DNA of 64,000 nucleotides from Candidatus Heimdallarchaeum aukensis (GCA_021513695.1 CP084166.1:3017794-3081793); one strand, 5' to 3'; shown: positions 517 through 64,000, counted from the stretch's first letter. A program made the numbers and translations. The notes: generated from the sequence alone by a model not told the origin.

Positions 517-558
517 ATTTATTTGATAATATTGTATAAAGAGAGTAGTGAGATAAAA

Positions 559-7133: not shown

Positions 7134-7134
7134 G

Positions 7135-25639: not shown

Positions 25640-25697
25640 TATCAAATTTTTCTTCAATCAATAATCTTTATTTATCACAATATAAACAATAAATGCA

Positions 25698-26393: not shown

Positions 26394-26406
26394 AAAGAGA
26401 AAAAAT

Positions 26407-26706: not shown

Positions 26707-26718
26707 TCTTTTCTCCTC

Positions 26719-28032: not shown

Positions 28033-28184
28033 TATAAAATGTTTATGTGAAAATATAAAAAAGAAAATAGAAAAGAATGAAAAATTATTTTATCTTTTTT
28101 AAAGAATAATCAAATTAAGTTAGCACAAATAACAGCAAAGTTAAATATGACTACCTTTGAGAATAAAGTAAGATTGGTGAGATT

Positions 28185-29141: not shown

Positions 29142-29271
29142 TCCTTTTTTTATTTTACTGTTTATTTTTTGTTTTGAGAATAGTAATTTTGTATTTTCAT
29201 TTAAAAAAATCATTTTTTAAGAACAATAAATCTTTAATATTGAAAAGTTGTAAATGAATGTGTTGATATAA

Positions 29272-30495: not shown

Positions 30496-30553
30496 TATCA
30501 AATTTTTCTTCAATCAATAATCTTTATTTATCACAATATAAACAATAAATGCA

Positions 30554-31249: not shown

Positions 31250-31262
31250 AAAGAGAAAAAAT

Positions 31263-31562
31263 TTAACTCATTTTAAATTCTACACCGAATCCTCCATGAG
31301 GATAGTGCCAATCAACACTTCCGTGAGGACAAACAAGCCTACATGTTCCACATTCAACACAAGGTGCATAATCAAACGTTACAGGTACATCTCCATCTTC
31401 AACTAGTTTATAACATTCTGCAGGGCAACCATATACACAGTCATATGTCTTACATTTAGTTTTGCATATCTCCTCGTTTATGGTAATGTGAGCAAAATTT
31501 TTGTCTGTAACATACTTTGTTAATGCAAGTTTTTCTTCAATTTTTATTGGATTTTCTACCAT
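31263..31562 (-). CDS. fixX: ferredoxin-like protein FixX (copy 2)
   Basis: Identical to copy 1. Confidence 0.75.
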   Translation of the reverse strand: MVENPIKIEEKLALTKYVTDKNFAHITINEEICKTKCKTYDCVYGCPAECYKLVEDGDVPVTFDYAPCVECGTCRLVCPHGSVDWHYPHGGFGVEFKMS

Positions 31563-31574
31563 TCTTTTCTCCTC

Positions 31575-32888
31575 CTAAATAGATCTTAAAGCAGCAAAAG
31601 CATCTCCCATGAGCTTAAACAGCTTACCTTTCTTTAGGAAGTGCTTAATAGCTGTAGGAACAATTCTTTTTCTAGGCTCTCCAGTGTTGTGTAAAAGTTG
31701 ATACATCAAAGAATTAAGCAGTTCTGGATAAACATTGAAAATTCTCTCTCTCTCCAAGAACTTTGCAGCTCGTTTAAATCTCTTCAAATCTTGCAAAACA
31801 AAACTATCTCGCAATAATTTCAAATAAATCTTTGTTCCTTCTGCAGAATAATCATTTGTTGTTAAAGCTTCTTTTGCTGCTAACCCTGCTAGTCTTCCAG
31901 ACTCTAAAGCAAAATTCATACCTTCTATGTACAAACCTGCGTTAAGAACCATACCAGCAGCATCACCAGCAATCATCACACCGTTCCCATATAACTTAGG
32001 CATGTGTTTGTATCCCCCTTCAGGAATAGCGTGAGCAGAGTATTCAACCATTTTAGCATCTTTAAGGAGCTTTTGGATGTAGGGGTGTTTCTTAAAATCT
32101 TCAAAAGCATCAATCGCTCTGATCTTTTTTTGTATAAGTTTTTTCATGTTTAAGATCAATCCAAAAGAAAGTGTTTCTTTATTTGTATAGAAGAATCCTC
32201 CTCCTGGAATTCCATGAGTATAACCTAGAAACTCGTTACTTATTCCTTCATTTCCATTAAGATGAAATCTCTCTTCAATTATTTCTTTCTTTAATTCATA
32301 TGTTTCTTTCATTCCTACAGCGTAGTGTGAAGGTGAAGGCTTTTTAGCAAGTTTAGCTTTTTCTGCTAATAAAGTAACAGCTCCTTCAGCAATTATAGTG
32401 AGTTTAGCTTTTAATTCATCTTCTCCAGATTCTATTCCTATAATTTGATTATCCTTCCAAATGAAATCTTCAGCTACAGTGTTGTCGAGAATAAAAGCTC
32501 CTGCTTCTTCTGCTTTTTGGGCCAACCATCTGTCAAATTTTGGACGAATAACAGTTACACCATTGTAAGGTGGTTCGGCAAAATCTTGTAAATCAATATC
32601 AATAGTCATTGCTCGCTTTTCAGACAAAAGAGTAATCTTTTTAGTTGTTAAATATCTCTCAATAGCATCTTCTTCCCAATAGTTAGGAACGATTTTATTT
32701 AGTACTGGGCCGTAAAGAGCTCCTCCACTTACATTTTTTGCACCAGGATACTGTCCTCTTTCAATAATAGCAACCTCTTTTCCTTCCTTTGCTAAAGTTA
32801 ATGCTGCAGAAGAACCAGCTAGTCCAGCTCCAACTATAATTACATCAAAATCGTATTCTACAGTCATAAAAAAATGTTTGATTTTCAA
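31575..32888 (-). CDS. fixC: FAD-dependent oxidoreductase FixC, copy 2 (contiguous with etfBA)
   Basis: Identical to copy 1. Directly downstream of etfA. Confidence 0.8.
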   Translation of the reverse strand: MKIKHFFMTVEYDFDVIIVGAGLAGSSAALTLAKEGKEVAIIERGQYPGAKNVSGGALYGPVLNKIVPNYWEEDAIERYLTTKKITLLSEKRAMTIDIDLQDFAEPPYNGVTVIRPKFDRWLAQKAEEAGAFILDNTVAEDFIWKDNQIIGIESGEDELKAKLTIIAEGAVTLLAEKAKLAKKPSPSHYAVGMKETYELKKEIIEERFHLNGNEGISNEFLGYTHGIPGGGFFYTNKETLSFGLILNMKKLIQKKIRAIDAFEDFKKHPYIQKLLKDAKMVEYSAHAIPEGGYKHMPKLYGNGVMIAGDAAGMVLNAGLYIEGMNFALESGRLAGLAAKEALTTNDYSAEGTKIYLKLLRDSFVLQDLKRFKRAAKFLERERIFNVYPELLNSLMYQLLHNTGEPRKRIVPTAIKHFLKKGKLFKLMGDAFAALRSI

Positions 32889-32940
32889 TATAAAATGTTT
32901 ATGTGAAAATATAAAAAAGAAAATAGAAAAGAATGAAAAA

Positions 32941-33915
32941 TTATTTTATCTTTTCTTTTAAAATAGGAAGAATTTGATGAAGATCTCCAACTATTCCATA
33001 ATCACAATATTTGAATATAGAAGCTCTTTCGTCAGTGTTTATTGCTATCAAGGTCTTGGCTTTAACTCCACAGATATGTTGAGGTGCACCACTAATTCCT
33101 GCGGCAATATACAAATCAGGGGAAACTGACTGACCAGTTTGGCCTATTTCATAAGTTTCTTCTATCCAATGTAGATCTGTGCAGGCTCTTGTTGCACCCA
33201 TTTCTCCTCCAAGCAAGTCAGCTAGTTCTTTAATAATAGCGAATTTGTCTTTTCCACCTACACCCCTTCCTCCAGCAACAATTATCTTTGCATCTTTAAG
33301 ATTAACTGTCTTCTTCGCTTTAAGAATCTCTACACTTTTAACAATTCTATCTTTTTCATCGAATGAAACAGTTAATTTTTCTATTTCTGGTTCTTGTCCT
33401 TCTGGATTCTCATCTATAAAGAAAGCTCCTGCACGAGTTGTGATGAATATTTTTTCTCCTTTAGATTTCATTTTTACCATAGCTTGGTCGTCTCTAACTG
33501 GAGTAATAGCTATAAGATCATCACCCTCTAAAATCAAGTCAGTTACTCTTTCAAGACAAGTAGTGTTATAATGAACAGCTAATCTGGGAATGAGGTCTTC
33601 TACATTAACTAGTCCTCCACCAATAACTACTTTAGGGTCAGCAGTTTTGATAATCTCTAACATAGCTTTTACATAAGCTCGAGAAAGGTAAGTGCTCAAT
33701 TCAGGAGCTTCTACTACAAAGACTTTTTTAGCTCCGTGCTTACCTAAAGTGGAAATCCATTCATCTTTAGCTTGTTCACAGAGGAGAGCAGCAGAAACAT
33801 CTCCTAAACTAGTAAAGTTTTTGACTTTATTTAGAACTCCTAAAACGTTTTCTTCTATTTCTCCATCTCTGATTAAAGCAAAAACAAGTATTCCAGTCAT
33901 TTTATGCACCCCCAA
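32941..33915 (-). CDS. etfA: electron transfer flavoprotein alpha subunit (FixB/EtfA)
   Basis: EtfA FAD-binding C-terminal motifs (IAINTDE, PQHICG-like), length 324 aa. Confidence 0.85.
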   Translation of the reverse strand: MGVHKMTGILVFALIRDGEIEENVLGVLNKVKNFTSLGDVSAALLCEQAKDEWISTLGKHGAKKVFVVEAPELSTYLSRAYVKAMLEIIKTADPKVVIGGGLVNVEDLIPRLAVHYNTTCLERVTDLILEGDDLIAITPVRDDQAMVKMKSKGEKIFITTRAGAFFIDENPEGQEPEIEKLTVSFDEKDRIVKSVEILKAKKTVNLKDAKIIVAGGRGVGGKDKFAIIKELADLLGGEMGATRACTDLHWIEETYEIGQTGQSVSPDLYIAAGISGAPQHICGVKAKTLIAINTDERASIFKYCDYGIVGDLHQILPILKEKIK

Positions 33916-36759: not shown

Positions 36760-37060
36760 TTTTTTACATAAAGTTTTTCGCACTCTGTCTTGCAAGAGAA
36801 AAAACTAAAGGAAGTTTAATCTCTTGAACTCAACCAAGCCATACAATGCCGTGAAGGGGTTGAGACAGACATCATACACGAATCGTGGGAATCATAAAGA
36901 AGAAAAGAGTTGTAAGTTCTTTTCTTCACTCCACGAGAGACAAAAAAGAAAGAATTACCCACTAAAAGAGAGAAGTAATTACTTTCCTTTTTGTCTACTG
37001 GGACTGCAACCAATGGCTGAGCCCTAGACAAACAGTGAAATGAGTGAGACTGTATTTCTG
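36760..37060 (-). ncRNA. candidate omega-RNA (reRNA) of TnpB, overlapping the tnpB 3' end and the right end of the IS
   Basis: This region is distinctly GC-richer than its surroundings and has overlapping ORFs on both strands (36816..37031), typical of a structured RNA. Its position relative to tnpB matches known omega-RNAs. Extent is not determined. Confidence 0.3.
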
Positions 37061-38452
37061 ACCAGTGAGGTAATCGGTGATAGTATTTCCTCGAGGACGG
37101 AAAAGTTCCCCAAGGAACTTACGCGCGATATTCATTGCTCCAGTGAGGTCAGAGTGGAAAGTGTAATTGCAAGAGGGACAATGGACTAAACCTCTAACGG
37201 GACGGATAACTTTCCTTCCGCAACGAGTACAGTGAGAGGATGTTCCTTTTTCCTCTATCGTTAATATTCGGTGAGGTTCAAAACCTCTTAATATCAATGC
37301 TCGATGAAGAAGAGCAAGAACAAGAGAAAAGTTCCACTGATGAAGTTTTCTACGAAACTTACGAGTAATTTTTCTCTTTCCTTTCTCCTCTCGAATGTGT
37401 TTAGGATAACCTACAACGACGAAAAGGTCATACCTTTGTGCATAAGTTTCTATCGTCTGCACGACATTGTTTATAAATTGGTGAATATAGACGCGTTTAA
37501 CGTTTTTATATCTTCTTCGGAGAAGGCCGAGAAAACGGTAAATTTGGTGTTTTTTACCAGATTGGTCGTTTAAAGCCGCTTTCCTCTGAAGACGGGAAAG
37601 TTTGAGTTTATATCGATGATTAACTCTATTCCACTGTTTGGTATACCAGAATTTTATCTCTTTGTTTGTTAATTTCTTTTTAGGGGTTAGAAGCACTCCT
37701 GCAGCAGGAATGTTTATACCTAGATCTATTCCCAGCACAGCTGGGGGAAGAGAAGAAGAATTCTCTTTTTCAGGAGAATAAAAAGAAGGAGGAGGAAGAA
37801 CTTTTAGTTGGAAATACACCCACCACTCACGTGTAGAACGTTTATATCTTAGTTCTAAACTTTTCACTCTCCCTTTCTTTAACTCTTTCTGGTGGAAAGT
37901 GCTCATCTCTAAAGGTAACCATAGTTTCTGATGATAAGGTGTGTTTCTTCTCCACGTATCTAACGAGTCTCTTATCCCCACCCACCAACGAGTAAGTGTA
38001 TTATTCTTCTCTTTTGGCAGATGCACGAGAACAAACCTCTTTGCATTAATTAGTTGTCTTCTTGCTCTCTTTATTGGAAGACGAGTAGGACTGGGTCTAT
38101 ACCCTTGCTCGTATAGTTGCACAGCTATATCTCTACATTCTTGGAATTCATTGTGAGAACAATAAGGGAACATTTTCTTGAAATCGTGAAGAACAGTCTC
38201 TCTCCTCTCTTCTACTCTCTTTAATCTTGATGTCGTTAGCGTCAGTTCATCTAGTTTTCCTCTGTGAACTCTTATTTTCCCATTTTTAGTTTTAGTACAT
38301 ATTTTTCTTCTGTTGTGATGTATAATTCTCACATACTTTTCTATTATCCTTGTGTCTCTCCCCGTTATTTTCCTTAACTTTTCCTTTTTTCTCGTCGTCA
38401 ATACCTCATTCTTTATCCTCACTTTCAAGGTTTTGACGACGTCCTCCACCAT
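36995..38452 (-). CDS. tnpB: TnpB (OrfB) RNA-guided endonuclease of an IS200/IS605-family element
   Basis: 485 aa with a C-terminal zinc finger (CTRCG ... CPSCN). An upstream DLGINIPA motif could carry the RuvC-I catalytic Asp; this assignment is uncertain. The N-terminus is a basic helix-rich region. Confidence 0.8.
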   Translation of the reverse strand: MVEDVVKTLKVRIKNEVLTTRKKEKLRKITGRDTRIIEKYVRIIHHNRRKICTKTKNGKIRVHRGKLDELTLTTSRLKRVEERRETVLHDFKKMFPYCSHNEFQECRDIAVQLYEQGYRPSPTRLPIKRARRQLINAKRFVLVHLPKEKNNTLTRWWVGIRDSLDTWRRNTPYHQKLWLPLEMSTFHQKELKKGRVKSLELRYKRSTREWWVYFQLKVLPPPSFYSPEKENSSSLPPAVLGIDLGINIPAAGVLLTPKKKLTNKEIKFWYTKQWNRVNHRYKLKLSRLQRKAALNDQSGKKHQIYRFLGLLRRRYKNVKRVYIHQFINNVVQTIETYAQRYDLFVVVGYPKHIREEKGKRKITRKFRRKLHQWNFSLVLALLHRALILRGFEPHRILTIEEKGTSSHCTRCGRKVIRPVRGLVHCPSCNYTFHSDLTGAMNIARKFLGELFRPRGNTITDYLTGQKYSLTHFTVCLGLSHWLQSQ

Positions 38453-38772: not shown

Positions 38773-39279
38773 TTAAGTAGATTCGTTTTTATCTTTTTCA
38801 AAATTACTTATTATTTTTTCCAAAACTTGTTCTATCTCTGTTTTGGATTTAAGAGAAAGGAAATAATATTCAATATTGAATTTGTTTGCTATACTTGCCA
38901 CTTCTTCTTCACTTATTTCATGATATGCTTCTAAGTCTTTTTTAGACCCAATAAAAATGATGTTAGGTATGAATTTCAAAGCTTCTGCTACTTCTTTTAT
39001 CCACTTATGAACATCTATAAACGAGCTCCTTCTAGTGAGATCAAAGACAACAAAAATCACATTACTGCCAACATAATATGACTTCCTTATTTCAGTAAAT
39101 CTTTGTTGAGCTGGTAGGTCCCAAAGAGTTAAATTGTACTTTTCTCCTTTAATTTCGATAGAATAAGTAGCAATATTTTGGCCATATTCTTCTTTTCTTA
39201 CTTCTGTGGTTAGCGTTCTTAGTAACTCTGTTTTACCTACTCCTGCCTCACCGACGATACAAATCTTTAGATTATGCAT
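38773..39279 (-). CDS. Ras-superfamily small GTPase
   Basis: 168 aa. P-loop GEAGVGKT (G1), WDLPAQ (G3, a DxxG variant), and SKKD (G4, an NKxD variant). Confidence 0.7.
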   Translation of the reverse strand: MHNLKICIVGEAGVGKTELLRTLTTEVRKEEYGQNIATYSIEIKGEKYNLTLWDLPAQQRFTEIRKSYYVGSNVIFVVFDLTRRSSFIDVHKWIKEVAEALKFIPNIIFIGSKKDLEAYHEISEEEVASIANKFNIEYYFLSLKSKTEIEQVLEKIISNFEKDKNEST

Positions 39280-52254: not shown

Positions 52255-55200
52255 ATGACTAAAGATAGAAAAGAGACCGACATTTCTAAATTCAATAATG
52301 ATGATACAAAAAATAAAAGTGGAAAGGAGCAAGTATTAGAAAAAGAAGAACCTCTTTTAGATATTTCATTCAATGATACTTCAGAAATATCTGTTCCTCC
52401 GAGACTAATTGATCAAGTGATAGGTCAAGATGAAGCTGTTGAAATAATAAAAAAGGCTGCTTTGCAAAAAAGGCATGTCATGCTCATTGGGGATCCTGGA
52501 ACAGGAAAGAGTATGTTAGGTCAAGCAATGGCAGAGCTTTTACCCAAAGAAGATCTTGTAGATATTCTTTGTTTACCTAATCCTAAATACCCAAATCAAC
52601 CTAGAATTGCTACTCTTCCAGCAGGGCATGGAACAAGAAAAGTTCAGATGGATACAGAGTTGGCTCGAAAGAAGGGTAATAAGAGATTTGTGGTTTCTTT
52701 ATTCATTTTAATTGCTATAATTGGTTACGCTATTATTGCTACATCCTCTAGACCTGATTTACAACCTCAAACTCTTTTAATGGCAATGTTTGTAGGGTTC
52801 TTCATATTCTTCATGCTCAATCAATCCAGATCAAGACCAGAAGCACTAATACCAAAATTATTAGTTGATAATAGTAATAGCAAAAGAGCACCATTCAATG
52901 ATGCAACAGGAAGCCACGCAGGAGCCTTACTTGGCGATGTACGTCACGATCCGTTTCAAAGCTTTTTAAGCGGAAATATTAAGATTTTTGAAGGAAATGG
53001 TCTGACTGAAGTCAACATTAAGGAATATGCAGATAAGCTATTTGAAAAGTATAGCAACAGGATTGTAAAAGACAAATCCAACAATTATGAAGCCATTTTT
53101 CTAGAAAAACCTATTAGAGTGATTGGTGAAGAAAAAGGACAATTAATTTCTGCTGATGTTTTATCTGTTAATAGGTATGAATATAGTGATTATGCAGTAG
53201 AAATAGAGATAGAAAATGGCAAAAAAGTAGCTGTTACACCTGAACATCGGATATTCGTACAAAATGAGAACGGATATATGATCGAAAAACCTGCAATGAA
53301 ATTAAAAAAAGGAGAAAGAATAGTGTCTATTGATAATGAGATTATTATTGATGGAGAAGATATTGCATCTACATTTGGCGAAAATGATCTAAAACAGTAT
53401 CTTCTCTATAAAAGATTTTTAGAAGTTAGAAAACTTCATCCTACGTGGGGATATAAGCGAATTTCCAAGTTTTTAGGAGAAAAAAGCAGTAAAACAAGAT
53501 GGTGGTATGAAGAAAAGCATATACCTAAAGCTCAAAGAACTATAAATTGGCTTGAAAATAAAGGATTACTTCCATTAAAAATTAGTAATTCTAAATTACT
53601 TTTGATTGCCAAAGTTTTGGGTGCTTTATTTGGTGATGGAGGAATATTTGAAAACTTAAATGGCATATTTTTATCAAGTTCAGAATTAGAATCTGTCAAG
53701 GAATTTCAATCCGACATTGAGAAAATTTTTGATTTAGATGAAAATGAGTTTGGAAGGATTATTGAAGGTGGTGAAAAAGGTCATTCTTGGTGCTACCAAA
53801 ACACTAACCGAGCCATAGTTAGATTTTTTTTGGCACTTGGTGCTCCAAAGGGTAAAAAAACTGAACAACCTTTGTATGTTCCAGCTTGGATTTATACTGA
53901 TGATGCAGTTGAAGAAGAGTTCTTTAGTTCATTTTTAGGAAGTGAGATAGGAGTACCCAAGGTACACATTTCTGGTATAAGGCTACAAACATTTGATCTA
54001 GCAATCACTGGAAAAAAAGAACTGTCTAAGAACAGACTAGAATTTTTGAATCAAGTTATACAATTCTTGGAAAAAAGGGGCGTAAAATGCAATAATGTAC
54101 GAGTCTACGATACTCCCAACAAGAGGTATTACAAATACAGATTATTCATATCTACACAATTTTCAAATGTGTATCAGTTTTCTAAAGAAATTAAATTAAA
54201 TTACTGTCGGTATAAAGGTGAAAAATTAAGCAAAACCATCAATGCTTTTGGAAAGATAAAAAAACAGCGTTATGAAGCGTTAATTGATAAAGGTTATAGT
54301 GCTGAAAAAGCGATGAACAAACTTAAATTAAGCCAGAGAGGATTATATATTATACTTTCGGAGGAATGGTAACTATGAGGTTTAAAACAGAAAAAATAGA
54401 GAACATTAAAATTAAAAAAGTTAAGGAAAAGGCTTACAATTTTACAACTACTACAGGTAATCTTATAGTCTCTGATATTCTCTGTTCTAACTCTGGTGGG
54501 TTAGGAACTCCTCCTCATGAAAGAGTAGAAGCTGGATTAATTCATAAATCTCATAATGGTGTATTATATATTGATGAGATTGGTACTTTAAAGATACAAA
54601 CCCAACAAAAACTTCTTACAGCAATGCAAGATGGAAAGCTATCAATTACTGGTCAATCAGAGTTAAGTTCTGGTGCAATGGTTCGTTCTGAGCCTGTTCC
54701 TTGTAGATTTGTTTTAGTCGCTGCAGGAAATATTGAAACTACACGTAATATGCATCCAGCTCTTCGCTCTCGTATTCAAGGTTCTGGTTATGAAATTTAT
54801 ATGAAAGACACTATGCCAGACACAATTCAAAATAGACGTAAATTAGCACGTTTTGTAGCTCAAGAAGTATCTAAAGATAAAAAGATTCCTCATTTTAGTA
54901 AAGAAGCTGTAGAAGAAATCATTTATGAAGCACAGAGAAGAGCAGACAGAAAGGGTTACTTAACTCTTCGTCTTCGAGAACTTGGAGGATTAATTCGTGC
55001 TGCTGGAGATCTAGCTAAAGAGAGAAAAGAGGAAATAGTTTCTGCTGAAACTGTAAGATTAGCAAAAACCTTCGCTAGAACTTTAGAGAACCAAATAAGC
55101 GATAGTTACGCTGATCAAAGAAAACAATATAAGATAATAGAAATAGAGGGAGAGAGAGTGGGAAGAGTAAATGGACTGGCAGTAATTAACCAACGTTCTG

Positions 55201-55757
55201 GAATAGTAATGCCAATAGAAGCAGAAGTTGTTCCTGCATTTAGTCAAAGAGAAGGAAAAATTGTGGCAACAGGGCAACTAAGAATAATAGCTAGAGAAGC
55301 AGTTCAAAATGTTTCTGCTATTCTAAAGAAATTTATAGGAAAAGATATCTCAAACTTTGATTATCACATTCAATTTGTAGGTGCATATAGTGGAGTAGAA
55401 GGAGATTCTGCATCCATTTCGATAGCTACTGCAGTTATTTCAGCTTCTGAAAAAGTTCCCGTTAGACAAGATACAGCAATGACTGGAAGTCTAACAGTCA
55501 GAGGAGTCGTAATCCCAGTTGGTGGAGTAACAAGTAAAATTGAGGCCGCGGCAGAAGCTGGAATAAAAAGAGTGATTATACCCAAACAGAATTTGGGTGA
55601 CGTAAAAGTTGAGAAAAAATACGCAGATAAAGTCGAGATTATCCCCGTGGAACATTTTAGCGAAGTTCTTAGAGCTGCTTTTCCCCCAGAATATGAATAT
55701 GTCGCTAAAAAATATGAAACTTTGAATAAAGAAAAGCCAATCAATGGTTTAAATTAA
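52255..55757 (+). CDS. lonB: archaeal membrane-bound Lon protease (LonB) interrupted by an intein; the reading frame is broken by an apparent -1 frameshift inside the intein
   Basis: N-extein: Walker A GDPGTGKS, two TM helices, and ...[14 protein letters not shown]-extein: [15 protein letters not shown], Walker B VLYIDEI, and the protease Ser in GDSASIS. The two ORFs (52255..54372 and 54366..55757) overlap in different frames. Confidence 0.7.
52960..54491 (+). other. LonB intein with a LAGLIDADG homing-endonuclease domain (1532 nt, not a multiple of 3)
   Basis: Begins with Ser (SFLSGNIKI, block A-like). Block [18 protein letters not shown]-type motif [14 protein letters not shown]. The C-terminal splicing block [20 protein letters not shown] is followed by the extein SGG. 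The frame shifts between 54327 and 54372. Confidence 0.7.
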
Positions 55758-55760
55758 CCT

Positions 55761-56090
55761 GTGAGGAAAATGAGTTCTGCGGGTTACTTTTTTTATTTAT
55801 GTTCTATCACAGTAAAGCCAAATGATGAAGAACAGTATGAAGACTTTAATGAATTTGATATGCATTTACATTTGGTGCAAGAAGAGTTAGAAAAGAAAGA
55901 ACCCTCTCGAGACCCCTATTTAGAAACAACTTTTTTTCTCCCCGATTGGGTAGAGATGAATTTTAAGTTCAAAAGTTCTTACAAAGATGGTGATGAAGAC
56001 ATCTACATGTATATTGATCTAGTAAAAGAAGAGATTGAAAGTGACCTCAATGTTACAATTGTAGATTTTGGAATCGAAGGTGTTGTCTGA
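55761..56090 (+). CDS. hypothetical acidic protein
   Basis: 109-aa ORF directly after lonB. Confidence 0.3.
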   Translation: MRKMSSAGYFFYLCSITVKPNDEEQYEDFNEFDMHLHLVQEELEKKEPSRDPYLETTFFLPDWVEMNFKFKSSYKDGDEDIYMYIDLVKEEIESDLNVTIVDFGIEGVV

Positions 56091-56144: not shown

Positions 56145-57176
56145 TTATTTCATAACTATGTATATTTCAGTTTGGCAGTTGTTACATCTACCATCTAAAG
56201 AAATTCTTAATACCTCAGTAGAGGTTGAAGTACGTTTAATTAATAGTTGACCGCATTTTGGACAAGTAGTATTATCTTCAGGATGATCAGGAATTCCATG
56301 GATATAGCAGAAGTTTATTCCTGCTTCTTTCGCCATTTTGAAGGCTTCTTCCATTAACTCTTTGGAAGTGGGTTGTAAATCTTTTACCTTATATGCTGGT
56401 TTTAATCTTACTAGATGTAATGGGATGTCAGGAGAAATTTCAGTAGCAAGAAAATGAGCTAGAGCTCCTGCACTAATATCATCATTTAGGATTTTTTCGT
56501 GGATAACTAGACTGACTTCTAAATGAGTTCCATGTTCATAAATTAGCTTCATAATTTTCTTTATATGTTCGAAATCTCCTCCTCCACAGTTTTTTAAGTA
56601 GTCTTCATCGTTCAATCCTTTAACTTCAATAGCTACAGCATCAACATATTGAAGTATTTCTTTAAAAGGCTCCTCATTGAAATATCCATTTGTTCGGAGT
56701 AAAATCTTCATTTTTTTCTCTTTTGCTATTTTTGCTGTATCCCTGACCCATTCGAAAGATACCAATGGTTCTGAATCACCGAAGACCATAACTCTAGAAC
56801 CTGAAGCAAGACCAAACATAGCTGCTTGTTGTGGAGGATATTTCTTTCCAGAAATCGTCTCTGGTTCTATTTGGGAAAGTTCAGATACAGGGCAGAATGA
56901 ACAATCTAAATTGCAATTATAGGTCATAAATGTTTGAGCTCTTGCACTAGGAAAGAAATGAAGAACATGCTGTTTTTCAATTCTGTCAATCTGCATTTTG
57001 GTAAAACCATAAGTTAGAGAATAAAGTTTTCCTGAAATATTCATTCTTGCTTTACATTTACCTTTTTCTTTATGGGCGAGCTCACATCCAAAAGGACATA
57101 AATCACATTTTACAATTTGTTGCTCTTCATCAACCACATGATAATATTCTGCTTCATGAAGTAATTCAGCGTTCAT
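56145..57176 (-). CDS. AmmeMemoRadiSam-system-type radical SAM enzyme (PFL-activase-like)
   Basis: N-terminal HEAEYY ... C.LCPFGC ... GKCKAR region followed by CNLDCSFC (CxxxCxxC). Paralogue of 62046..63071. Confidence 0.6.
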   Translation of the reverse strand: MNAELLHEAEYYHVVDEEQQIVKCDLCPFGCELAHKEKGKCKARMNISGKLYSLTYGFTKMQIDRIEKQHVLHFFPSARAQTFMTYNCNLDCSFCPVSELSQIEPETISGKKYPPQQAAMFGLASGSRVMVFGDSEPLVSFEWVRDTAKIAKEKKMKILLRTNGYFNEEPFKEILQYVDAVAIEVKGLNDEDYLKNCGGGDFEHIKKIMKLIYEHGTHLEVSLVIHEKILNDDISAGALAHFLATEISPDIPLHLVRLKPAYKVKDLQPTSKELMEEAFKMAKEAGINFCYIHGIPDHPEDNTTCPKCGQLLIKRTSTSTEVLRISLDGRCNNCQTEIYIVMK

Positions 57177-57305
57177 TAAAATCAACAATATTGTTTAATT
57201 TGTTTTGTTTTTTAAATTTTTATATAGATTCGATTGTTGAATTAAGTAATAAGATAAAGAAAAATAAATTTAAAATTTACAAATACTAAGTTATAAAGAA
57301 GTAAA

Positions 57306-58436
57306 GTGTTTCTACGAAAAGATGCAGTTGAAGTTTGGTCACATACAGAACTAGACGAACGTCTGATAAAGTATCAACAAGTTTTCAAGAAAAGAATATT
57401 GCCAAGGTACATTCTGGCAAAAAATTTCAAAGTAGAGTTTGATGTTAATAGCTCAATTACTGAGTTACTTGAACTTCACAACGAAAAAGGTGAAGAATTT
57501 AGACTCTTTGTTTCTGAAAACCAAGAAAAAACTCCAGAAGAGTTCTATAGTTCTAATAAAAACAAACAAGTAGAGAAATCAGGACAGAACTACTTAAGAT
57601 TAAAAATTGAAATATTGAAAAAAATAATAAAAAACTGTGAATTTTGCGAAAATAAATGCCACGTAGATAGAACGAAAGGAGAGTTGGGAAGGTGCAAGGT
57701 AGATGACAAAGCTTATGTTGCAAGCGCTTTCACTCATTTAGGGGAAGAATCTCCGATTGTTCCTTCTGGGACTATTTTCTTTTATGGTTGTACAATGAAA
57801 TGCGTTTTTTGTCAAAATTACGATATAAGTCAAGAATATTCTCTTAATAGTTTCAGAGGAAGAGAAACATCTCCATATGGTCTCTCACTAATAATTAGTG
57901 ATATGGTAAAACAAAAAGTTCGAAATATTAATTTTGTAGGTGGAGAACCAACTCCAAATCTCCATATTATTTTAGAAGCAATGGAATTGTCTACAGAGAT
58001 AATACCAATGTTATGGAACAGTAATATGTATTTAAGTGAAAAAGTGATGAAGATAATCGTAGATATCTTTGATATATGGTTACCAGACATGAAGTATGGT
58101 AATAACAAATGCGCAGAGAAATATTCTAAAGTTCAAAATTATTGGCCAACTCTTAAAAGAAATATGAAAATGATTGAAAGTTTAGGAAGTGGAGAATACA
58201 TAATCAGACATCTTGTTATGCCTAACCATTTAGAATGTTGCTCTTTTCCAATACTTCAATGGATTAAAGAAAACTTGAAAACATCGCTTGTAAATATTAT
58301 GGGACAATATCGACCAATGTACAAAGTGGGTATAGGTAAGTATGAAGAAATAAACAGAAGACCTGTTTCAGTAGAGATGAGACAAGTTAAGGATTATGCA
58401 GATAATCTTGGTTTAAGATGGAGATCAGTATCTTAA
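57306..58436 (+). CDS. radical SAM protein, PflX-like (COG1313-type)
   Basis: An N-terminal Cys cluster (CEFCENKCH, CK) is followed by CTMKCVFC (CxxxCxxC). Length 376 aa. Confidence 0.55.
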   Translation: MFLRKDAVEVWSHTELDERLIKYQQVFKKRILPRYILAKNFKVEFDVNSSITELLELHNEKGEEFRLFVSENQEKTPEEFYSSNKNKQVEKSGQNYLRLKIEILKKIIKNCEFCENKCHVDRTKGELGRCKVDDKAYVASAFTHLGEESPIVPSGTIFFYGCTMKCVFCQNYDISQEYSLNSFRGRETSPYGLSLIISDMVKQKVRNINFVGGEPTPNLHIILEAMELSTEIIPMLWNSNMYLSEKVMKIIVDIFDIWLPDMKYGNNKCAEKYSKVQNYWPTLKRNMKMIESLGSGEYIIRHLVMPNHLECCSFPILQWIKENLKTSLVNIMGQYRPMYKVGIGKYEEINRRPVSVEMRQVKDYADNLGLRWRSVS

Positions 58437-58463
58437 AAACTATAAAAAAAGAGATAATTTAGA

Positions 58464-59213
58464 TTATTCAAGTTTTTTCGAAGCCTTTCTCCACAAGTGT
58501 TTTGTAAAAGCCTCTGCATACTCTGCATCACATAATCTTCCAAATAATTTCATTGAGGATATTTTATAATCTCTTACAGCCCAGACACCGTACGCTCCTT
58601 CATAAAAATCAAAGAATTTCATTATTTTATCATATTGCTTTGTGACATCAACGAACCAAGTTGAAGGTAAAACTACATTATCAGCGTGAAAAGGTGTGTA
58701 TAGACTTATCCTTCTTCTATAAGGAGGATATTGGTCTTCTTCGTTTCTATATCTTGCATAAGAAATCGCATCTAAAACAATGGAATGAGTGTATCTATGA
58801 TCAGGGTGTCCAACACCAATTTGTACAGATTGTCCCCATGTGATAATGACGTCAGGTTGGTGTTTTTTTATGAAGTTTGCAACTTTTTTAGCATTCTCAA
58901 TACTAGGAAAAACAGAAGAATCTGGTATATCAAAAAAATGATATTTTAGCCCAAGTTCATTTTCGATTTTTTTAGCTTGTTTTTCTCTGATTTTAGCAAT
59001 TTCTTCTTTAGTCCCACTAAAACTAGAAGCATTTTCTCCACGAGTTAGAAGTAAAATATCAACATTGTCACCCTCTTCAATGTGATTAAGAAGAGTACCT
59101 ATTGCTCCAACTTCGTCATCAGGGTGAGCAAAAATTGCTAACACATTGAGTTTATTAATATCTTCCATATGAAAACAAAAGAAACTCTTAATATAAAATG
59201 TATGTTCTTTCAA
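58464..59213 (-). CDS. PIG-L/LmbE-family N-acetylglucosaminyl deacetylase
   Basis: LAIFAHPDDEVGAIGTLL motif, length 249 aa. Confidence 0.75.
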   Translation of the reverse strand: MKEHTFYIKSFFCFHMEDINKLNVLAIFAHPDDEVGAIGTLLNHIEEGDNVDILLLTRGENASSFSGTKEEIAKIREKQAKKIENELGLKYHFFDIPDSSVFPSIENAKKVANFIKKHQPDVIITWGQSVQIGVGHPDHRYTHSIVLDAISYARYRNEEDQYPPYRRRISLYTPFHADNVVLPSTWFVDVTKQYDKIMKFFDFYEGAYGVWAVRDYKISSMKLFGRLCDAEYAEAFTKHLWRKASKKLE

Positions 59214-59309
59214 AAATAGCTATAAAGTTCCTAAACTATCTTTTACCTATTTTCTCTCTATTTTTACATAAAGAAAAATTTATATATGAACAATTGAACA
59301 ATCGTTCAT

Positions 59310-59687
59310 ATGAACGAAACTCCCATTTGTGAAATAGAATCTGTGAATCAGGAAGCAATTGAATATGTAACGAAACAACTCTGTTCTGATGAGGAAATCT
59401 ATAGATTTACTGAACTGTTTAAAGTTTTATCTACACCTAGTAGACTGAAAATCCTTTTTGCTCTTCAACATCATGAGCTCTGTGTATGTGATTTAGCTAT
59501 TGTTCTAAATACTACAACTTCTGCTGTTTCACACCAACTAAGAATCTTAAGACAAAATGATCTTGTTAAATTTAGGAAAGACGGAAAAAATGTCTATTAT
59601 TCTTTGGTCAATAAGAGCTTTGTTGAATCTATACTGAATAACCATGAATGGTTTGGTTTAGAACATTCTTTTTGTACAGGTGAATAA
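59310..59687 (+). CDS. ArsR/SmtB-family metalloregulatory repressor
   Basis: HTH LCVCDLAIVLNTTTSAVSHQLRILRQNDLV with a CVC metal site. Overlaps the start of the downstream P-type ATPase. Confidence 0.8.
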   Translation: MNETPICEIESVNQEAIEYVTKQLCSDEEIYRFTELFKVLSTPSRLKILFALQHHELCVCDLAIVLNTTTSAVSHQLRILRQNDLVKFRKDGKNVYYSLVNKSFVESILNNHEWFGLEHSFCTGE

Positions 59688-61827
59688 AATGGTAAAAATC
59701 GAAGGTAGAGTAAAAGGTATGGATTGTGCTTCATGTGTAGCCAAAATAACAAAGAATTTAGAAGCTTTAGAAGGTGTTTCTAAAGTAAACTTAAATCTAG
59801 TTAGTACAAAGTTAGAAATTGAAGCTGATGAGAATCTAGTAACAGAAAAAGATATAATAAAAGTAGTAAAAAATTTAGGTTATTCTTTTAAGAAGGAACT
59901 AGAATTTACTTCTTTTTTTAACCCATTAGAAAATAAGGAATTAGCTTTTACTGCCACTGGTTTAATTTTCTTAGTAGTTGGATTGTTACTTGAATTTTTC
60001 AATGTTCCTCATCCCCATCCTTTCTTTTTAGCTGTATCTATTCTAGTTGGTGGAATTCCAGTATTCGTTAATGGTTATAAATCCTTAAAGGCAAAAACAA
60101 TAGATATAGATCTGTTAATGGTAATTGCTATTATTGGCGCTTCAGTGATTGGAGAGTGGGAAGAAGCAGCAGAAATAGTTATCCTCTTTTCTATTGCAGA
60201 GCTGTTAGAAGGCTATTCAATGGATAAGGCGAGAGGAGCTATTAAAGAATTAATGGATCTCACTCCTCCTACTGCCATAAAATTGATAGAAGGTAAAAAA
60301 CATGAAGTTGTTCCAGTAGATGAATTAGTAGTAGGAGATAGAATTAGCATTAAACCTGGAGCGACAATTCCTATAGATGGAAAAATTGAGTGGGGAAGTT
60401 CACTGGTTGATCAAAGCGCTATTACAGGAGAGTCAAAACCTGTGAAAAAAGAAGTTGGGGATAATGTGTATGGAGGTTCAATAAATCTTCATGGTTATCT
60501 GGTTGTTCGTGTCGTGAGTATGCCCAATGAAAGTACGATAGCAAGAATTATTCATATGATAGAAGAAGCTGAAAACAATAAAGCAAAGGCTGAACAATTC
60601 GTACAAAAGTTTGCTAAATATTATACACCAATCATGGTTAGCATTGCGGTTCTAGTAACTGTCATTCCACTAATCGTCTTTCTGATACAAACAGGTTCAT
60701 TTGTGGGCATGCTTCCAATTCTTAAACTCTGGTTTTATAGAAGTTTGGTTATTCTAGTTGTTTCATGCCCATGTGCTTTGGTTTTATCTACACCAGTTAC
60801 AGTTGTAACAGCTATTACAAGAGCAACAAAGAAAGGAGTATTAATAAAAGGAGGAAGGTATTTAGAGGCTTTATCCTCAATAAACACTATAGCTATTGAT
60901 AAAACTGGTACATTAACATTAGGAAAAATAAAAGTTTACAAAGTAGAATTATATAATGGCTATACAGAAGAAAAGGTTTTAGAAATAGTTTCAGGCCTTG
61001 AATCTCATTCAGAACATCTAATTGCCAAAGCAATTACAGAATATGCAAACGAAAAAAATGTAGAGAGTCTCTCCTTTGATGAAGTAGAAATAATTCCAGG
61101 AAAAGGAATTAAAGGTAAAAAAGATGGAATAACATATTCTATAGGTAATGATGCTTTAGTTAATGAAATTTCAGGTAATTCTGCATATTTAGCTTGTGAT
61201 GAAACAGAAAGTGTTGTTAGTTACGTTCTAGAAGACAAAAAAATAATTGCTCATATTCATATGAGTGATGAATTACGTCCTGAAACAAAAAGTGTTATCC
61301 AAGAAATAAAAGAACTAGGGATAAAGAACATAATTATGTTAACTGGAGACAATGAGAGAGTAGCGAGTTCAATTGCTAAAGAGTTATCTATTGATTATGA
61401 TGCAGAATTGCTTCCAGAAGATAAGGTTAAAGCAGTAAAAGAACTAAGGGAGAAATATGGAAATGTAGCAATGATAGGAGACGGTATAAATGATGCTCCT
61501 GCATTAGCTTTAGCCGATGTGAGTATATCAATGGGTTCTGCAGGAACTGCTGTGGCGATAGAAACTTCTGATATTGTACTCTCTTCAGACAATCTCAAAA
61601 ACTTGCCTTATTTAATAAAATTAAGCAAGAAAACGAAAAAAATAATTCAAATAAATATCACTTTTGCATTAACAATTAAGCTTTTGTTCTTCATCTTGGT
61701 ATTTTTCGGAATAGCAATACTATGGTTGGCAGTTTTATTAGGCGATGTTGGAGCTTCTCTAATTGTTATAGGTTTAGCTATGACAGTTGGACTTGAAAAG
61801 AAGTTAAAAAGAAAAAAGAACAAATAA
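59680..61827 (+). CDS. heavy-metal (Cd/Zn/Pb-type) translocating P1B-type ATPase
   Basis: N-terminal HMA domain with GMDCASC. CPC in TM6 (VSCPCAL). DKTGTLT phosphorylation site. GDGINDAP hinge. Confidence 0.85.
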   Translation: MNKMVKIEGRVKGMDCASCVAKITKNLEALEGVSKVNLNLVSTKLEIEADENLVTEKDIIKVVKNLGYSFKKELEFTSFFNPLENKELAFTATGLIFLVVGLLLEFFNVPHPHPFFLAVSILVGGIPVFVNGYKSLKAKTIDIDLLMVIAIIGASVIGEWEEAAEIVILFSIAELLEGYSMDKARGAIKELMDLTPPTAIKLIEGKKHEVVPVDELVVGDRISIKPGATIPIDGKIEWGSSLVDQSAITGESKPVKKEVGDNVYGGSINLHGYLVVRVVSMPNESTIARIIHMIEEAENNKAKAEQFVQKFAKYYTPIMVSIAVLVTVIPLIVFLIQTGSFVGMLPILKLWFYRSLVILVVSCPCALVLSTPVTVVTAITRATKKGVLIKGGRYLEALSSINTIAIDKTGTLTLGKIKVYKVELYNGYTEEKVLEIVSGLESHSEHLIAKAITEYANEKNVESLSFDEVEIIPGKGIKGKKDGITYSIGNDALVNEISGNSAYLACDETESVVSYVLEDKKIIAHIHMSDELRPETKSVIQEIKELGIKNIIMLTGDNERVASSIAKELSIDYDAELLPEDKVKAVKELREKYGNVAMIGDGINDAPALALADVSISMGSAGTAVAIETSDIVLSSDNLKNLPYLIKLSKKTKKIIQINITFALTIKLLFFILVFFGIAILWLAVLLGDVGASLIVIGLAMTVGLEKKLKRKKNK

Positions 61828-62045
61828 ACTTTTTTTCTTCTTTCTTCTATTATTCATTTTTAAGCTTTAAATAAACAAAAGATCTTCTTTTGAACTATTT
61901 AAAACAAAGTAAACTAACTTCAGAAATTTCTTGAATTAGAAAAATCCTTAATGCAAATAATACAAAGAATTTTTCTATTTAAATACAAATGAACACTTCC
62001 TTAAGAAAGTATAAAAAGAAAAAAGAGATTATTTATATGAAAAAA

Positions 62046-63071
62046 ATGAAACAAAAACAGTTTCATGAAGCAGAATACTATGAGAAATTAGAAGATAATT
62101 TAGTTCGTTGCTGTTTGTGTCCCCGAAATTGTATAATTAAAATGAATGATTTAGGCGATTGTAAGGCTAGACAAAATATTAACGGAAAACTATACGCATT
62201 AGGTTACAATCGTTTTACTTCTGTTCATGCAGATCCTATAGAAAAAAAACCTCTTTATCATTACAAGCCTGGAACAAGAACAATGAGTTTTGGTTCAGCA
62301 GGATGTAATCTTCATTGTGATTTTTGTCAAAATTGGACAATAAGTCAACTAGCTGCTACGAATAATTCATTGCACCATGTTTCTTCTCAAGAAGCTATAA
62401 GCTATACTATCAAGAACCGTTGTGAAACAATAGCTTTTACCTATAATGAACCACTAATAAATTTTGAGTGGATCAAAGAAACTTCTGAACTTGCACATGA
62501 AAAAAATTTGGGAACAATATTGGTTTCAAATGGGTTAATTAATGAAGAACCTCTGAAAGAACTTATTCCATTGATAGACGCAGCAAATATAGACATTAAA
62601 TCTTTTGAAATAGATTTCTATAAAGATATTTGTCATTTTCCAGGACTTGAAAGAATAAAAAAGAATGTAAAGATGATGGTTGAAGGAGGAATGCACGTAG
62701 AATTAACTATGCTTATAATTCCAGGATTTAATGACAATGAAGAATCTATCTCTGAATTCGCTTTATGGGTGAAAAATGAACTAAATGATCGCGTTCCTGT
62801 TCATTTTAGCCGATTCTATCCTCACTTTAGAATGCAACATGTTTCTCCTACCCCTCCAGAAACAATATATAAAGCAAGAGAAATAGCTCTTGAAAAAGGC
62901 TTAAAGTATGTTTTTGTGGGAAATTTACCAGCAGAAGAGTATAATCATACCCTATGTCCAAATTGTAAAGCAATTTTAGTTAGTAGATACTTTTATAGTA
63001 CTTCTATTGATGCCCTAGAAAAAGACGGAACATGTGGGAAATGCAAAGTTAAAACGGATATTGTAATATAA
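62046..63071 (+). CDS. AmmeMemoRadiSam-system-type radical SAM enzyme (second paralogue)
   Basis: HEAEYY ... CCLCPRNC ... GDCKAR followed by CNLHCDFC. Start chosen so that the M-to-HEAEYY spacing equals that of the paralogue. The ORF is open from 61989. Confidence 0.6.
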   Translation: MKQKQFHEAEYYEKLEDNLVRCCLCPRNCIIKMNDLGDCKARQNINGKLYALGYNRFTSVHADPIEKKPLYHYKPGTRTMSFGSAGCNLHCDFCQNWTISQLAATNNSLHHVSSQEAISYTIKNRCETIAFTYNEPLINFEWIKETSELAHEKNLGTILVSNGLINEEPLKELIPLIDAANIDIKSFEIDFYKDICHFPGLERIKKNVKMMVEGGMHVELTMLIIPGFNDNEESISEFALWVKNELNDRVPVHFSRFYPHFRMQHVSPTPPETIYKAREIALEKGLKYVFVGNLPAEEYNHTLCPNCKAILVSRYFYSTSIDALEKDGTCGKCKVKTDIVI

Positions 63072-63171: not shown

Positions 63172-63879
63172 ATGAGTGAAGAAAAGGATAACAAAGAGAA
63201 AAAAGACATTAACATCATTAAACTAGAGAAAGGAGAAACAGTTGATCTAAGTAAAGCTCTAGGTTCAAGCAAAAGGTTAAACATACTAAAGTATACAGCA
63301 GAAGAAGAGCTAAACCTCTCTGAAATCGCAGAAAAAATAAATAGTACACCTCAAGCAGTTTATCATCATCTACAAATTTTAGAAAAATCCAAACTCATTA
63401 GGGTAGTGAGAGAAGAAAAGATAAAAAATATGGATAAAACAATAAAATATTACAGAAGTAATTTCCACCCAGAAGCAATTAATCTTATTTTATGGGCTCC
63501 TCTGGAAAATCTTGATTTCGAACAATTGCAAGAAAGAGTACCACTCACTAAATTGCCAATTGAAAGAATAGCAAGAAAAATATCAAATGTCATGTTTCAA
63601 GATAAAACAGAATATAAAACAGACATACTAACAAAATTATTAGAAGGACTAATAGATGAAACACATCACAGTATGCAAGCACTAAAAGAAGAGTATGGAC
63701 TAGAACTAGATGAAAAACTATGGAACCTGATGCTCTTATTCTCACAATTATCAACCTTGAATGCTTTTAAGAAAACAATGGAAAACGAGAAATTAAAGAA
63801 AAACTTCGATGATTTAGTGGCACTACTAGCAGAGGAAATGTTCGAAGATGTATTGATAGAGAAAAAAGAAATAGAATAA
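63172..63879 (+). CDS. ArsR-like winged-helix transcriptional regulator with a C-terminal helical domain
   Basis: LSEIAEKINSTPQAVYHHLQILEKSKLIRVV HTH near the N-terminus. Length 235 aa. Confidence 0.5.
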   Translation: MSEEKDNKEKKDINIIKLEKGETVDLSKALGSSKRLNILKYTAEEELNLSEIAEKINSTPQAVYHHLQILEKSKLIRVVREEKIKNMDKTIKYYRSNFHPEAINLILWAPLENLDFEQLQERVPLTKLPIERIARKISNVMFQDKTEYKTDILTKLLEGLIDETHHSMQALKEEYGLELDEKLWNLMLLFSQLSTLNAFKKTMENEKLKKNFDDLVALLAEEMFEDVLIEKKEIE

Positions 63880-63926: not shown

Positions 63927-64000
63927 TGGTGCACGAGCCGGGAATTGAACCCGGATTTGTGGAATGGGAGTCCACGGTCCTACCATTAGACTACTCGTGC
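63927..64000 (-). tRNA. tRNA-Gly (anticodon CCC) with genomically encoded 3' CCA
   Basis: The reverse complement reads GCACGAG-TA-GTCT-AATGGTA-GGAC-C-GTGGA-CTCCCAT-TCCAC-AAATC-CGGGT-TCAATTC-CCGGC-TCGTGC-A-CCA. It has 7-bp acceptor, D, anticodon and T arms. The T-loop TTCAATTC is U-U-C-R-A-like. Confidence 0.8.

Follow-up and report, generated by a model that had tools for sequence, protein, structure and literature searches.

A diverged, Heimdallarchaeia-specific AmmeMemoRadiSam-like enzyme and its divergent pairing with a PflX-like radical SAM gene in Candidatus Heimdallarchaeum aukensis

The stretch of DNA analysed here, hereafter the window, comprises 64,000 nt of the Candidatus Heimdallarchaeum aukensis genome (GCA_021513695.1, CP084166.1:3017794-3081793), and our subject is a set of three radical S-adenosylmethionine (SAM) genes close to its 3′ end, which we named rSAM1, rSAM2 and rSAM3 (Table 1). 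A first-pass annotation had described rSAM1 and rSAM2 as paralogues of the AmmeMemoRadiSam type, i.e., the radical SAM partner of AMMECR1 and Memo, and had placed between them a third, PflX-like radical SAM gene (rSAM3) together with genes for an LmbE deacetylase, an ArsR regulator and a Cd/Zn P-type ATPase. An open reading frame (ORF) listing of the window recovered every ORF that had been named, at identical coordinates, and the PIG-L (LmbE), ArsR and ATPase products passed the cutoffs of their family models. The tRNA-Gly gene reported beyond rSAM2 was confirmed by ARAGORN and Rfam, and was the only RNA found in the Rfam scan. For rSAM2, gene callers preferred the ATG at 61989, which gives a protein of 360 aa, and the exact protein record corresponds to this 360-aa form and not to the 341-aa form.

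Few proteins without a known biochemical function are as widely conserved as AMMECR1, Memo and the radical SAM enzyme that partners them. AMMECR1, which a published survey detected in 429 of 524 archaeal genomes and which the literature describes as the strongest anaerobe-marker domain in bacteria, was ranked as a top-priority archaeal unknown in 2019 and was still termed uncharacterised in 2026. The statement of the first-pass annotation that the substrate is unknown agreed with the literature surveyed, in which the function of the family is still uncharacterised. The mentions of "AmmeMemoRadiSam" that we found were passing only, and the supplements of the Heimdallarchaeum genome paper (PMC8813620) held no AMMECR1, Memo or radical SAM annotation.

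rSAM1 and rSAM2 shared the motifs HEAEYY, C-x2-C-x3-C, G-x-CKAR and CxxxCxxC, and their full-length alignment (33% identity, E 9e-76) displayed the common N-terminal region and the CxxxCxxC motif by which they had been recognised. Both ORFs found their best match in TIGR04337, the NCBIfam whole-protein hidden Markov model (HMM) of the family, for which the curated cutoff is 220 bits. However, only rSAM2 passed it (320.9 bits), while rSAM1 missed it at 193.9 bits, even though the match was full-length. The proposed AmmeMemoRadiSam type thus held for both ORFs as the closest family but for rSAM2 alone as formal membership. Judged by its sequence, rSAM2 is the genome's orthodox AmmeMemoRadiSam enzyme. 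All three radical SAM proteins missed the cutoffs of the activase models PflA (TIGR02493), NrdG (TIGR02495 and TIGR02491), YjjW (TIGR04041) and PFLE_PFLC (TIGR02494); with 20-63 bits against cutoffs of 126-250 they lay far from the PflA/NrdG activases proper, a contrary placement that the first-pass annotation had envisaged. The PflA/NrdG/YjjW-type models by themselves gave 35-63 bits against cutoffs of 131-250. No glycyl-radical enzyme gene was evident when the list of window ORFs of at least 110 aa was read by eye, the HMM scans being confined to the region of interest; the large ORFs of the window encode LonB, the P1B ATPase, ABC transporter components and membrane proteins.

A six-frame motif scan of the 64 kb for AMMECR1 ([LV][RK]GC[IV]G, or the looser GC[IVL]G) and Memo (HAG..[YFW]SG) yielded no hit, in agreement with the earlier remark that neither partner gene lies in the window. 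Among 80 loci encoding canonical relatives, AMMECR1 and/or Memo was present within 4 kb, and sometimes fused, in 15; the count rose to 18 when the loci were scanned for motifs over their whole extent (up to 10 kb per side). In the loci of Heimdallarchaeia (Heimdall) that we examined, AMMECR1 and Memo were found in none. The absence of the two partners beside rSAM2 is therefore normal. In the HMMER list, many of the distant relatives P0283-P0325 were 590-1055 aa long with the radical SAM domain at one end; these are probably fusions to AMMECR1 and/or Memo, as in loci L019 and L063 (L numbers denote loci and contigs used for comparison).

The relatives of rSAM1 comprised about 30 proteins with 53-73% identity, of which all named ones came from Heimdallarchaeia, and identity then dropped to 35% or less, the level of ordinary AmmeMemoRadiSam enzymes. 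A HMMER search of 1.84 billion representatives with rSAM1 returned one 50%-identity cluster representative at 604 bits, while the next match after the rSAM1 clade followed at 231 bits and 37% identity. On TIGR04337, seven further members of the clade scored 199.5-223.6 bits, straddling the cutoff, whereas four canonical Heimdall copies (rSAM2 and those from L010, L012 and L013) reached 314-349 bits. Phylogenetic analysis by neighbour joining (NJ) resolved the paralogues into two discrete clades, the divergent and the canonical Heimdall clade, with 100% bootstrap support each; the two appeared as sisters, but this grouping received only 54%. An origin of rSAM1 by duplication within Heimdallarchaeia is thus suggested, though not established. 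The 33% identity of the two paralogues agreed with the age that the first-pass annotation had ascribed to them. Since identity to outsiders was 31% for the divergent clade and 40% for the canonical Heimdall clade, the former is, by this measure, the faster-evolving of the two.

Comparison of 30 divergent-clade with 76 canonical sequences (rSAM2 numbering) revealed eleven cysteines, arranged as an N-terminal CX2CX3CX9C, the radical SAM motif CX3CX2C and a C-terminal CX2C...CX2C, that were conserved in 100% of the divergent and in 86-100% of the canonical sequences. K68-P69, G86, Q95-N96-W97, Y133 and G292-N293, which occur in rSAM2 and in 92-100% of the canonical sequences, were replaced or variable in the rSAM1 clade, and H90 was lost as well. 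Q95 and N96 were present in 100% of the canonical sequences, and the Q-N-W triad sits directly after the radical SAM cluster. The residues switched in the rSAM1 clade point to positions that likely face the substrate. Relative to H. endolithica (L011), the ratio of nonsynonymous to synonymous substitution rates (dN/dS) was 0.047 for rSAM1, 0.051 for rSAM2 and 0.086 for rSAM3; the LonC pair was left out of this set owing to a mis-registered alignment. Because the value for rSAM1 was low and similar to those of rSAM2 and rSAM3, we conclude that rSAM1 is under purifying selection and is not decaying.

AlphaFold models of rSAM1 (pLDDT 94.6) and rSAM3 (pLDDT 91.6) both contained a partial TIM-barrel radical SAM fold like that of pyruvate formate-lyase activating enzyme (PFL-AE). 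PFL-AE was also the top Foldseek match of both models, with E values of 1e-13 (rSAM1) and 1e-10 (rSAM3) and target-normalised TM scores of 0.72-0.77, and no closer structure was present among the matches listed. The shared fold supports the notion that the proteins work like PFL-AE, not that they are members of its family. As PFL-AE was the best structural match for rSAM1 and rSAM3 and the only PDB sequence match for rSAM2, it is likely to be a mechanistic analogue for the abstraction of hydrogen from a protein or peptide substrate. By this analogy, each of the three enzymes would generate a 5′-deoxyadenosyl radical, which would then abstract a hydrogen atom from a substrate that resembles a protein or peptide.

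rSAM3 matched only the generic Radical_SAM and Fer4_12 models of Pfam and NCBIfam, neither of which has a PflX-specific model. It had more than 6,800 homologues, with full-length orthologues of 44-48% identity in the Loki, Thor, Odin, Hel, Hermod, Baldr and Njord lineages, and the motifs CX2CX3CX11C and CX3CX2C-QN were invariant in the family. Homologues carry the JGI name "putative pyruvate formate lyase activating enzyme"; we presume that the family corresponds to the uncharacterised radical SAM proteins of COG1313, "PflX". A literature search for "PflX" retrieved only unrelated uses of the string.

rSAM1 and rSAM3 were adjacent and divergently oriented in 12 of 13 informative contexts (the window, L004, L005, L006, L007/L008, L010, L011, L095, L100, L101, L102 and L104), five independent metagenome contigs among them. 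The pairing persisted down to 52-55% identity while the flanking genes were reshuffled. The two genes were separated by 123-187 bp in 11 loci, and in most genomes the rSAM1 start codon was preceded, at a distance of ~30-45 nt, by an AT-rich box of type TTTAATAAnATTTAATAA; this box in the shared intergenic region is a putative promoter. A sigma-70 promoter scan returned fewer sites than shuffled sequences did and is not applicable to an archaeon. Outside Heimdallarchaeia, the rSAM3 orthologues had no radical SAM neighbour. PflX-like genes were also considered as companions of canonical TIGR04337 genes in general and were discarded, as none was found beside such genes in the other 79 loci. Compared with its counterpart in H. 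endolithica (L011 5480..6607), rSAM3 exhibited a synonymous divergence (dS) of 0.29 and 93% nucleotide identity, as against a dS of 0.64-1.0 and ~85-91% for the neighbouring genes; the low value could result from recent recombination between H. aukensis and H. endolithica or from unusual codon constraint.

Gene order was less stable around the pair. In three more distant Heimdall genomes the order was LonB, a 106-aa ORF, rSAM1 and then the divergent rSAM3, which was directly followed by ARPC4 in two of them, while an aminotransferase gene and a small ORF intervened in the third. None of these three genomes carried PIG-L, ArsR, the ATPase, rSAM2, the gene for the winged-helix protein HTH235 or tRNA-Gly at that locus. 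L005 and L006 had no cassette between rSAM3 and ARPC4, L007 had none in the corresponding region, and the three genes were also missing from the equivalent position in L010; LmbE, ArsR and ATPase are thus lacking here in more distant Heimdall genomes. Apart from a 3′ remnant in H. endolithica, a PIG-L/LmbE gene was undetected in every other Heimdall locus examined. In L010, L012 and L013, the rSAM2 orthologue lay directly upstream of TldD/PmbA and near HTH235. In these genomes the diverged copy stays paired with the PflX-like gene, while the canonical copy adjoins HTH235 and TldD/PmbA/Dus. In H. aukensis, TldD/PmbA/Dus are found at 47.4-51.2 kb, ~11 kb from rSAM2. HTH235 (dN/dS 0.017) was close to rSAM2 in L010, L011, L012 and L013, in varying orientation. 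We therefore regard all these genes as members of one neighbourhood of ~20-30 kb that has been rearranged repeatedly.

Further observations concern the neighbours of the radical SAM genes. In L010 (513-3935), L012 (1186-6088) and L013 (7262-14806), the canonical radical SAM gene lay 67-109 bp upstream of a co-directional TldD/PmbA protease pair, with Dus next in L013. This arrangement resembles an operon and could hint at peptide processing; as a general neighbour of TIGR04337 genes TldD/PmbA was rejected, since among the canonical loci examined the linkage was seen only in those of Heimdall. The ARPC4 homologue, an Arp2/3 subunit, was syntenic with the radical SAM pair in most Heimdall genomes. 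An acidic ORF of 106-109 aa (55761..56090, + strand) was located between LonB and rSAM1, convergent with the latter, in nearly all Heimdall genomes. It shared 50-58% identity with its counterparts in distant genomes and 77-98% in close relatives, exhibited a dN/dS of 0.025 and had no Pfam or NCBIfam match; a Lon- or radical SAM-associated factor is possible.

Table 1. Genes and other features at the 3′ end of the window (positions counted from its first nucleotide)
Feature	Position	Strand	Details
rSAM1, diverged AmmeMemoRadiSam-like radical SAM enzyme	56145..57176	-	343 aa; TIGR04337 best match, below cutoff
Divergent intergenic region common to rSAM1 and rSAM3	57177..57305	.	129 bp
rSAM3, "PflX-like" radical SAM enzyme	57306..58436	+	376 aa; generic Radical_SAM and Fer4_12 matches only
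PIG-L/LmbE-family deacetylase	58464..59213	-	249-aa ORF (gene callers: 234 aa); PF02585 92.4 bits
ArsR/SmtB-family metalloregulator	59310..59687	+	125 aa; NF033788 88.5 bits; ELCVCDL box
Heavy-metal P1B-type ATPase, Cd/Zn family	59680..61827	+	715 aa; N-terminal HMA domain, CPC motif
rSAM2, canonical AmmeMemoRadiSam-system radical SAM enzyme	62046..63071	+	341 aa; TIGR04337 320.9 bits
HTH_20/ArsR-like winged-helix protein (HTH235)	63172..63879	+	235 aa; PF12840 43.3 bits (cutoff 27)
tRNA-Gly(CCC)	63927..64000	-	ARAGORN; Rfam RF00005, 68 bits

The metal cassette between rSAM3 and rSAM2 was assigned to well-defined families. The PIG-L protein scored well above the PF02585 cutoff of 28.2 bits; its best NCBIfam match was BshB1, with 80.7 bits against a cutoff of 182.5, so that it is not BshB1 proper. 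The ArsR protein exceeded the NF033788 cutoff of 55 bits, and its gene overlaps the start of the ATPase gene by 8 bp. The ATPase passed TIGR01525 (596.6 against 346.25 bits) and the "cadmium family" model TIGR01512 (512.4 against 313.5) but missed the ZntA-specific NF033775 (508 against 1240) as well as the CopA equivalog model. About 45 orthologues of the ATPase were found, with 57-70% identity, a divergence range equal to that of the radical SAM genes, and they belonged to Heimdall wherever they were named; the best bacterial and methanogen matches reached 40-44%. These figures ruled out a recent import from bacteria, and by its sequence relationships the ATPase looks vertically inherited within Heimdall. 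One orthologue (L093/L094) was embedded among unrelated housekeeping genes, with no ArsR, PIG-L, AmmeMemo-type or PflX-like radical SAM gene nearby.

In H. endolithica, the equivalent of window positions 58689-60770 was replaced by a TnpB-type insertion sequence (IS), which removed most of PIG-L (225 bp of the 3′ end are left), all of ArsR and the N-terminal half of the ATPase; the three radical SAM genes were intact. An ORF of the same IS type was present in the window itself: a TnpB/Cas12f-like protein (PF07282) of 485 aa is encoded at 36995..38452 (- strand) and shares 85% protein identity with the H. endolithica copy (L011 7022..8482). As a copy lies exactly at the site of the cassette loss, this IS family is actively remodelling these genomes. 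In the near-identical metagenome contig L003 (JGI 3300033141), gene calling split the ATPase into two ORFs (5412..7488) of 412 and 288 aa that overlap, which points to a frameshift variant or to a sequencing error of this assembly. PIG-L, ArsR and ATPase are resident Heimdall genes, relocated and dispensable; their location here is peculiar to the genus Heimdallarchaeum, and in H. endolithica half of the set is already gone.

From these results we consider it probable that the locus combines an orthodox rSAM2 with a Heimdall-specific, diverged rSAM1 that is paired with rSAM3, and that the metal cassette is incidental. rSAM1 would represent a fast-evolving paralogue, found only in Heimdallarchaeia, that has kept the radical SAM cluster and the other cysteine motifs. 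Its SAM-cleaving core would be retained, while the substrate pocket appears to have changed through replacement of Q-N-W, K-P, Y133 and G292 near the cluster, and the enzyme may act on a new substrate. Divergent transcription across a shared region of 120-190 bp suggests that rSAM1 and rSAM3 may act in one pathway. The bracketing of the cassette would be an accident of local rearrangement and neither a functional unit nor an integrated element, since the cassette holds its position only within the genus and is half deleted in H. endolithica. Several points weigh against this interpretation. In L009, which contains a 73% rSAM1 orthologue, rSAM1 is not located beside rSAM3, so that adjacency is not obligatory; divergent adjacency alone is in any case no proof of co-function, and many of the contexts sampled stem from closely related metagenome-assembled genomes that are not fully independent. 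The sister grouping of the two Heimdall clades, at 54% NJ bootstrap, is open to long-branch or compositional attraction. Furthermore, the chemistry and the substrates are, for all three radical SAM families, what we infer, and rSAM1 may simply serve a second AMMECR1/Memo pair and not rSAM3. The latter explanation, in which rSAM1 is an orthodox AmmeMemoRadiSam enzyme that serves a paralogous substrate or an additional AMMECR1/Memo pair confined to the lineage, and its adjacency to rSAM3 is conserved synteny without shared function, draws on the fact that TIGR04337 is the only strong family match of rSAM1, that the cutoff is exceeded, with 222-224 bits, by some members of the clade, and that all cluster cysteines are kept. 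The co-occurrence of rSAM1 and rSAM2 in all four genomes that could be checked for both and the broken pairing in L009 are also in line with it. We nevertheless regard it as unlikely, given the loss of residues found without exception in the 76 canonical sequences, the consistent gap of ~100 bits to the canonical copies and the head-to-head arrangement with rSAM3 that is kept down to 52-55% identity despite reshuffled flanks.

Two further explanations would give the bracketing itself a meaning. According to the first-pass annotation, the nearly symmetric placement of the paralogues might be the trace of a duplication or insertion, so that the segment between them, or the one from the PflX-like gene to tRNA-Gly, would be an integrated or horizontally acquired island at tRNA-Gly with the paralogues as its borders. 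Integration at tRNA-Gly(CCC) is indeed documented: in H. endolithica, provirus HeimV1 is attached there (Wu et al. 2022, PMC8813620). Both Heimdallarchaeum chromosome records have been rotated to end at this tRNA gene (Wu et al. 2022, PMC8813620), and since the window ends exactly there, it represents the final 64 kb of the H. aukensis record. As we read that paper, however, HeimV1 lies at the start of the H. endolithica record and hence on the far side of the tRNA from the cassette. Directly past the tRNA, metagenome contig L001, which extends beyond the window, encodes an ARPC4 homologue (12213..12698). No k-mer of at least 11 nt from tRNA-Gly recurred elsewhere in the window or in the L001 extension, so that the flanking repeats expected of such an element were not found. 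Neither was an integrase found by Pfam and NCBIfam among the eight ORFs scanned between 55761 and 63879, seven of which were assigned otherwise while the 109-aa ORF had no match. The GC content of the window was uniform at ~32% (range 0.28-0.37). A repeat search of the window gave short AT-rich matches only. An inverted 20-mer at 57141/62062, examined as an attachment (att) site, proved to be merely the FHEAEYY codons of the two paralogues. An A-rich 20-mer matching at 18 of 20 positions near both block edges (58445 and 62019) would fit an island, as would the absence of PIG-L, ArsR and ATPase from the equivalent position in L005, L006, L007 and L010 and the TnpB-type IS in part of the interval in H. 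endolithica; but the 20-mer is low-complexity, the stretch 62013-62049 matches several further sites, and it was rejected as an att site. Moreover, the ATPase is not foreign: its ~45 Heimdall orthologues, with 57-70% identity, have diverged to the same degree as the neighbouring genes. In other genomes of Heimdall, rSAM2 and HTH235 form part of this conserved neighbourhood too, and the would-be borders are only 33% identical. The island is largely refuted and very unlikely, and the near-symmetry is a product of gene-order shuffling, as the orders in L010, L012 and L013 demonstrate. Even less credible, to the point of being most improbable, is a single functional unit of radical SAM genes and metal cassette, e.g., a metal-dependent maturation or repair system tied to Cd/Zn efflux. 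The genes cluster physically in two species (window and L011), all three radical SAM proteins are rich in Fe-S- or Zn-binding cysteines, and the interval contains two ArsR-type regulators. Yet this clustering is confined to the genus Heimdallarchaeum, and H. endolithica has lost the regulator, most of PIG-L and half of the ATPase while its three radical SAM genes are all intact and subject to purifying selection. In the near-identical contig L003, gene calling gave two ORFs for the ATPase, and no cluster of heavy-metal-ATPase size was present among the 14 commonest neighbour clusters tabulated for canonical loci.

Returning to the probable interpretation of an orthodox rSAM2 and a diverged rSAM1 paired with rSAM3, what is new here, and in our view a modest lead, is that the rSAM1 clade is specific to Heimdall and has conserved a divergent pairing with a pan-Asgard PflX-type radical SAM enzyme. 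The rSAM1 paralogue and its fixed orphan radical SAM partner provide a small comparative handle. In all other respects we see nothing unusual in the locus: its metal cassette represents an efflux module of the standard kind, and the bracket illustrates, with no further biological meaning, how freely gene order shuffles in Heimdallarchaeum. More speculatively, rSAM1 and rSAM3 might form a Heimdallarchaeia-specific two-enzyme module, in which an AmmeMemoRadiSam duplicate, re-tooled through new residues around the active site, became coupled to the pan-Asgard PflX-type enzyme and which would install an undescribed modification or cofactor; we put this forward tentatively and think it unlikely. 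If true, such a module would reside in the archaeal lineage closest to eukaryotes, and the pairing would provide the first link by gene context between two large families of orphan radical SAM enzymes.

Several features elsewhere in the window deserve mention. The LonB gene was split into two ORFs, 52255..54372 (+) and 54366..55757 (+), within an intein located between DPFQ and SGGLGTP. The break was kept in three species (the window; L011 415-3917; L009 57-1424) with differing frames and spacing. The C-terminal ORFs have their own Met start, which is preceded by GGAGG in the window, and encode an IntC-like peptide of ~42 aa ending in ...LCSN|SGGLGTP, while more distant Heimdall genomes contained a one-piece LonB of 637-656 aa without intein. 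The split LonB is a candidate for an intein that is split by nature and splices in trans, its N-terminal part being unusually large. A tandem duplication of 4,859 bp (23241..28098 and 28096..32954; 99.98% identity, one gap) spanned genes for a methionine-aminopeptidase-like protein and a FixC-like flavoprotein as well as two hypothetical ones; either it arose very recently or it is an assembly artefact of the scaffolded genome. Four paralogous ORFs of ~290-300 aa on the + strand (523..1395, 4244..5143, 5211..6119 and 6243..7133), three of them in tandem, shared an N-terminal motif of the type KI(L/M)(C/T)D(T/S)(S/A)ADL; by eye they resemble DegV-family lipid-binding proteins. The region is flanked by genes of the eukaryote-signature type: besides ARPC4, which follows tRNA-Gly, an ORF at 38773..39279 (-) was assigned to small Ras-like GTPases from reading of its sequence only.

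Comparison with known systems places the locus as follows. HeimV1 of H. endolithica is attached at the same tRNA gene at the record end (Wu et al. 2022, PMC8813620), but the provirus sits, in our reading, on the other side of the tRNA, where H. aukensis has ARPC4, and no element scar was found on the cassette side. The cassette itself is similar to ArsR/P1B-ATPase efflux operons of the CadC/CadA type, in that an ArsR gene with an ELCVCDL box overlaps the start of an HMA-CPC ATPase gene and the cutoffs of TIGR01512 and TIGR01525 were passed. It differs in that the ZntA-specific and other equivalog models were missed; the ATPase is an archaeal (Heimdall) lineage copy with a putative specificity for Cd/Zn. 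PFL-AE (PDB 3CB8, 3C8F, 8FO0) is the nearest structural relative of the rSAM1 and rSAM3 models and the sole PDB sequence match for rSAM2. In contrast to PFL-AE, to which identity was only 15-20%, the window proteins score far below the PflA/NrdG/YjjW cutoffs, add an N-terminal four-cysteine and a C-terminal Zn-ribbon-like module, and are not accompanied by an evident glycyl-radical enzyme gene in the window. Within the TIGR04337 family, rSAM2 is a full member (321 bits), and rSAM1 agrees with it in length and architecture (CX2CX3CX9C, CX3CX2C and a C-terminal double CX2C). rSAM1 departs from the family by scoring below the cutoff and lacking the family-invariant Q-N-W, K-P, G86, Y133 and G292; its partner is a PflX-type radical SAM enzyme, and no Heimdall locus has an adjoining AMMECR1 or Memo. 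rSAM3, finally, resembles the "PflX" proteins of COG1313 in its N-terminal helical region, the CX2CX3CXnC motif and the radical SAM core, whereas its head-to-head pairing with an AmmeMemoRadiSam-like paralogue is a trait found only in Heimdallarchaeia.

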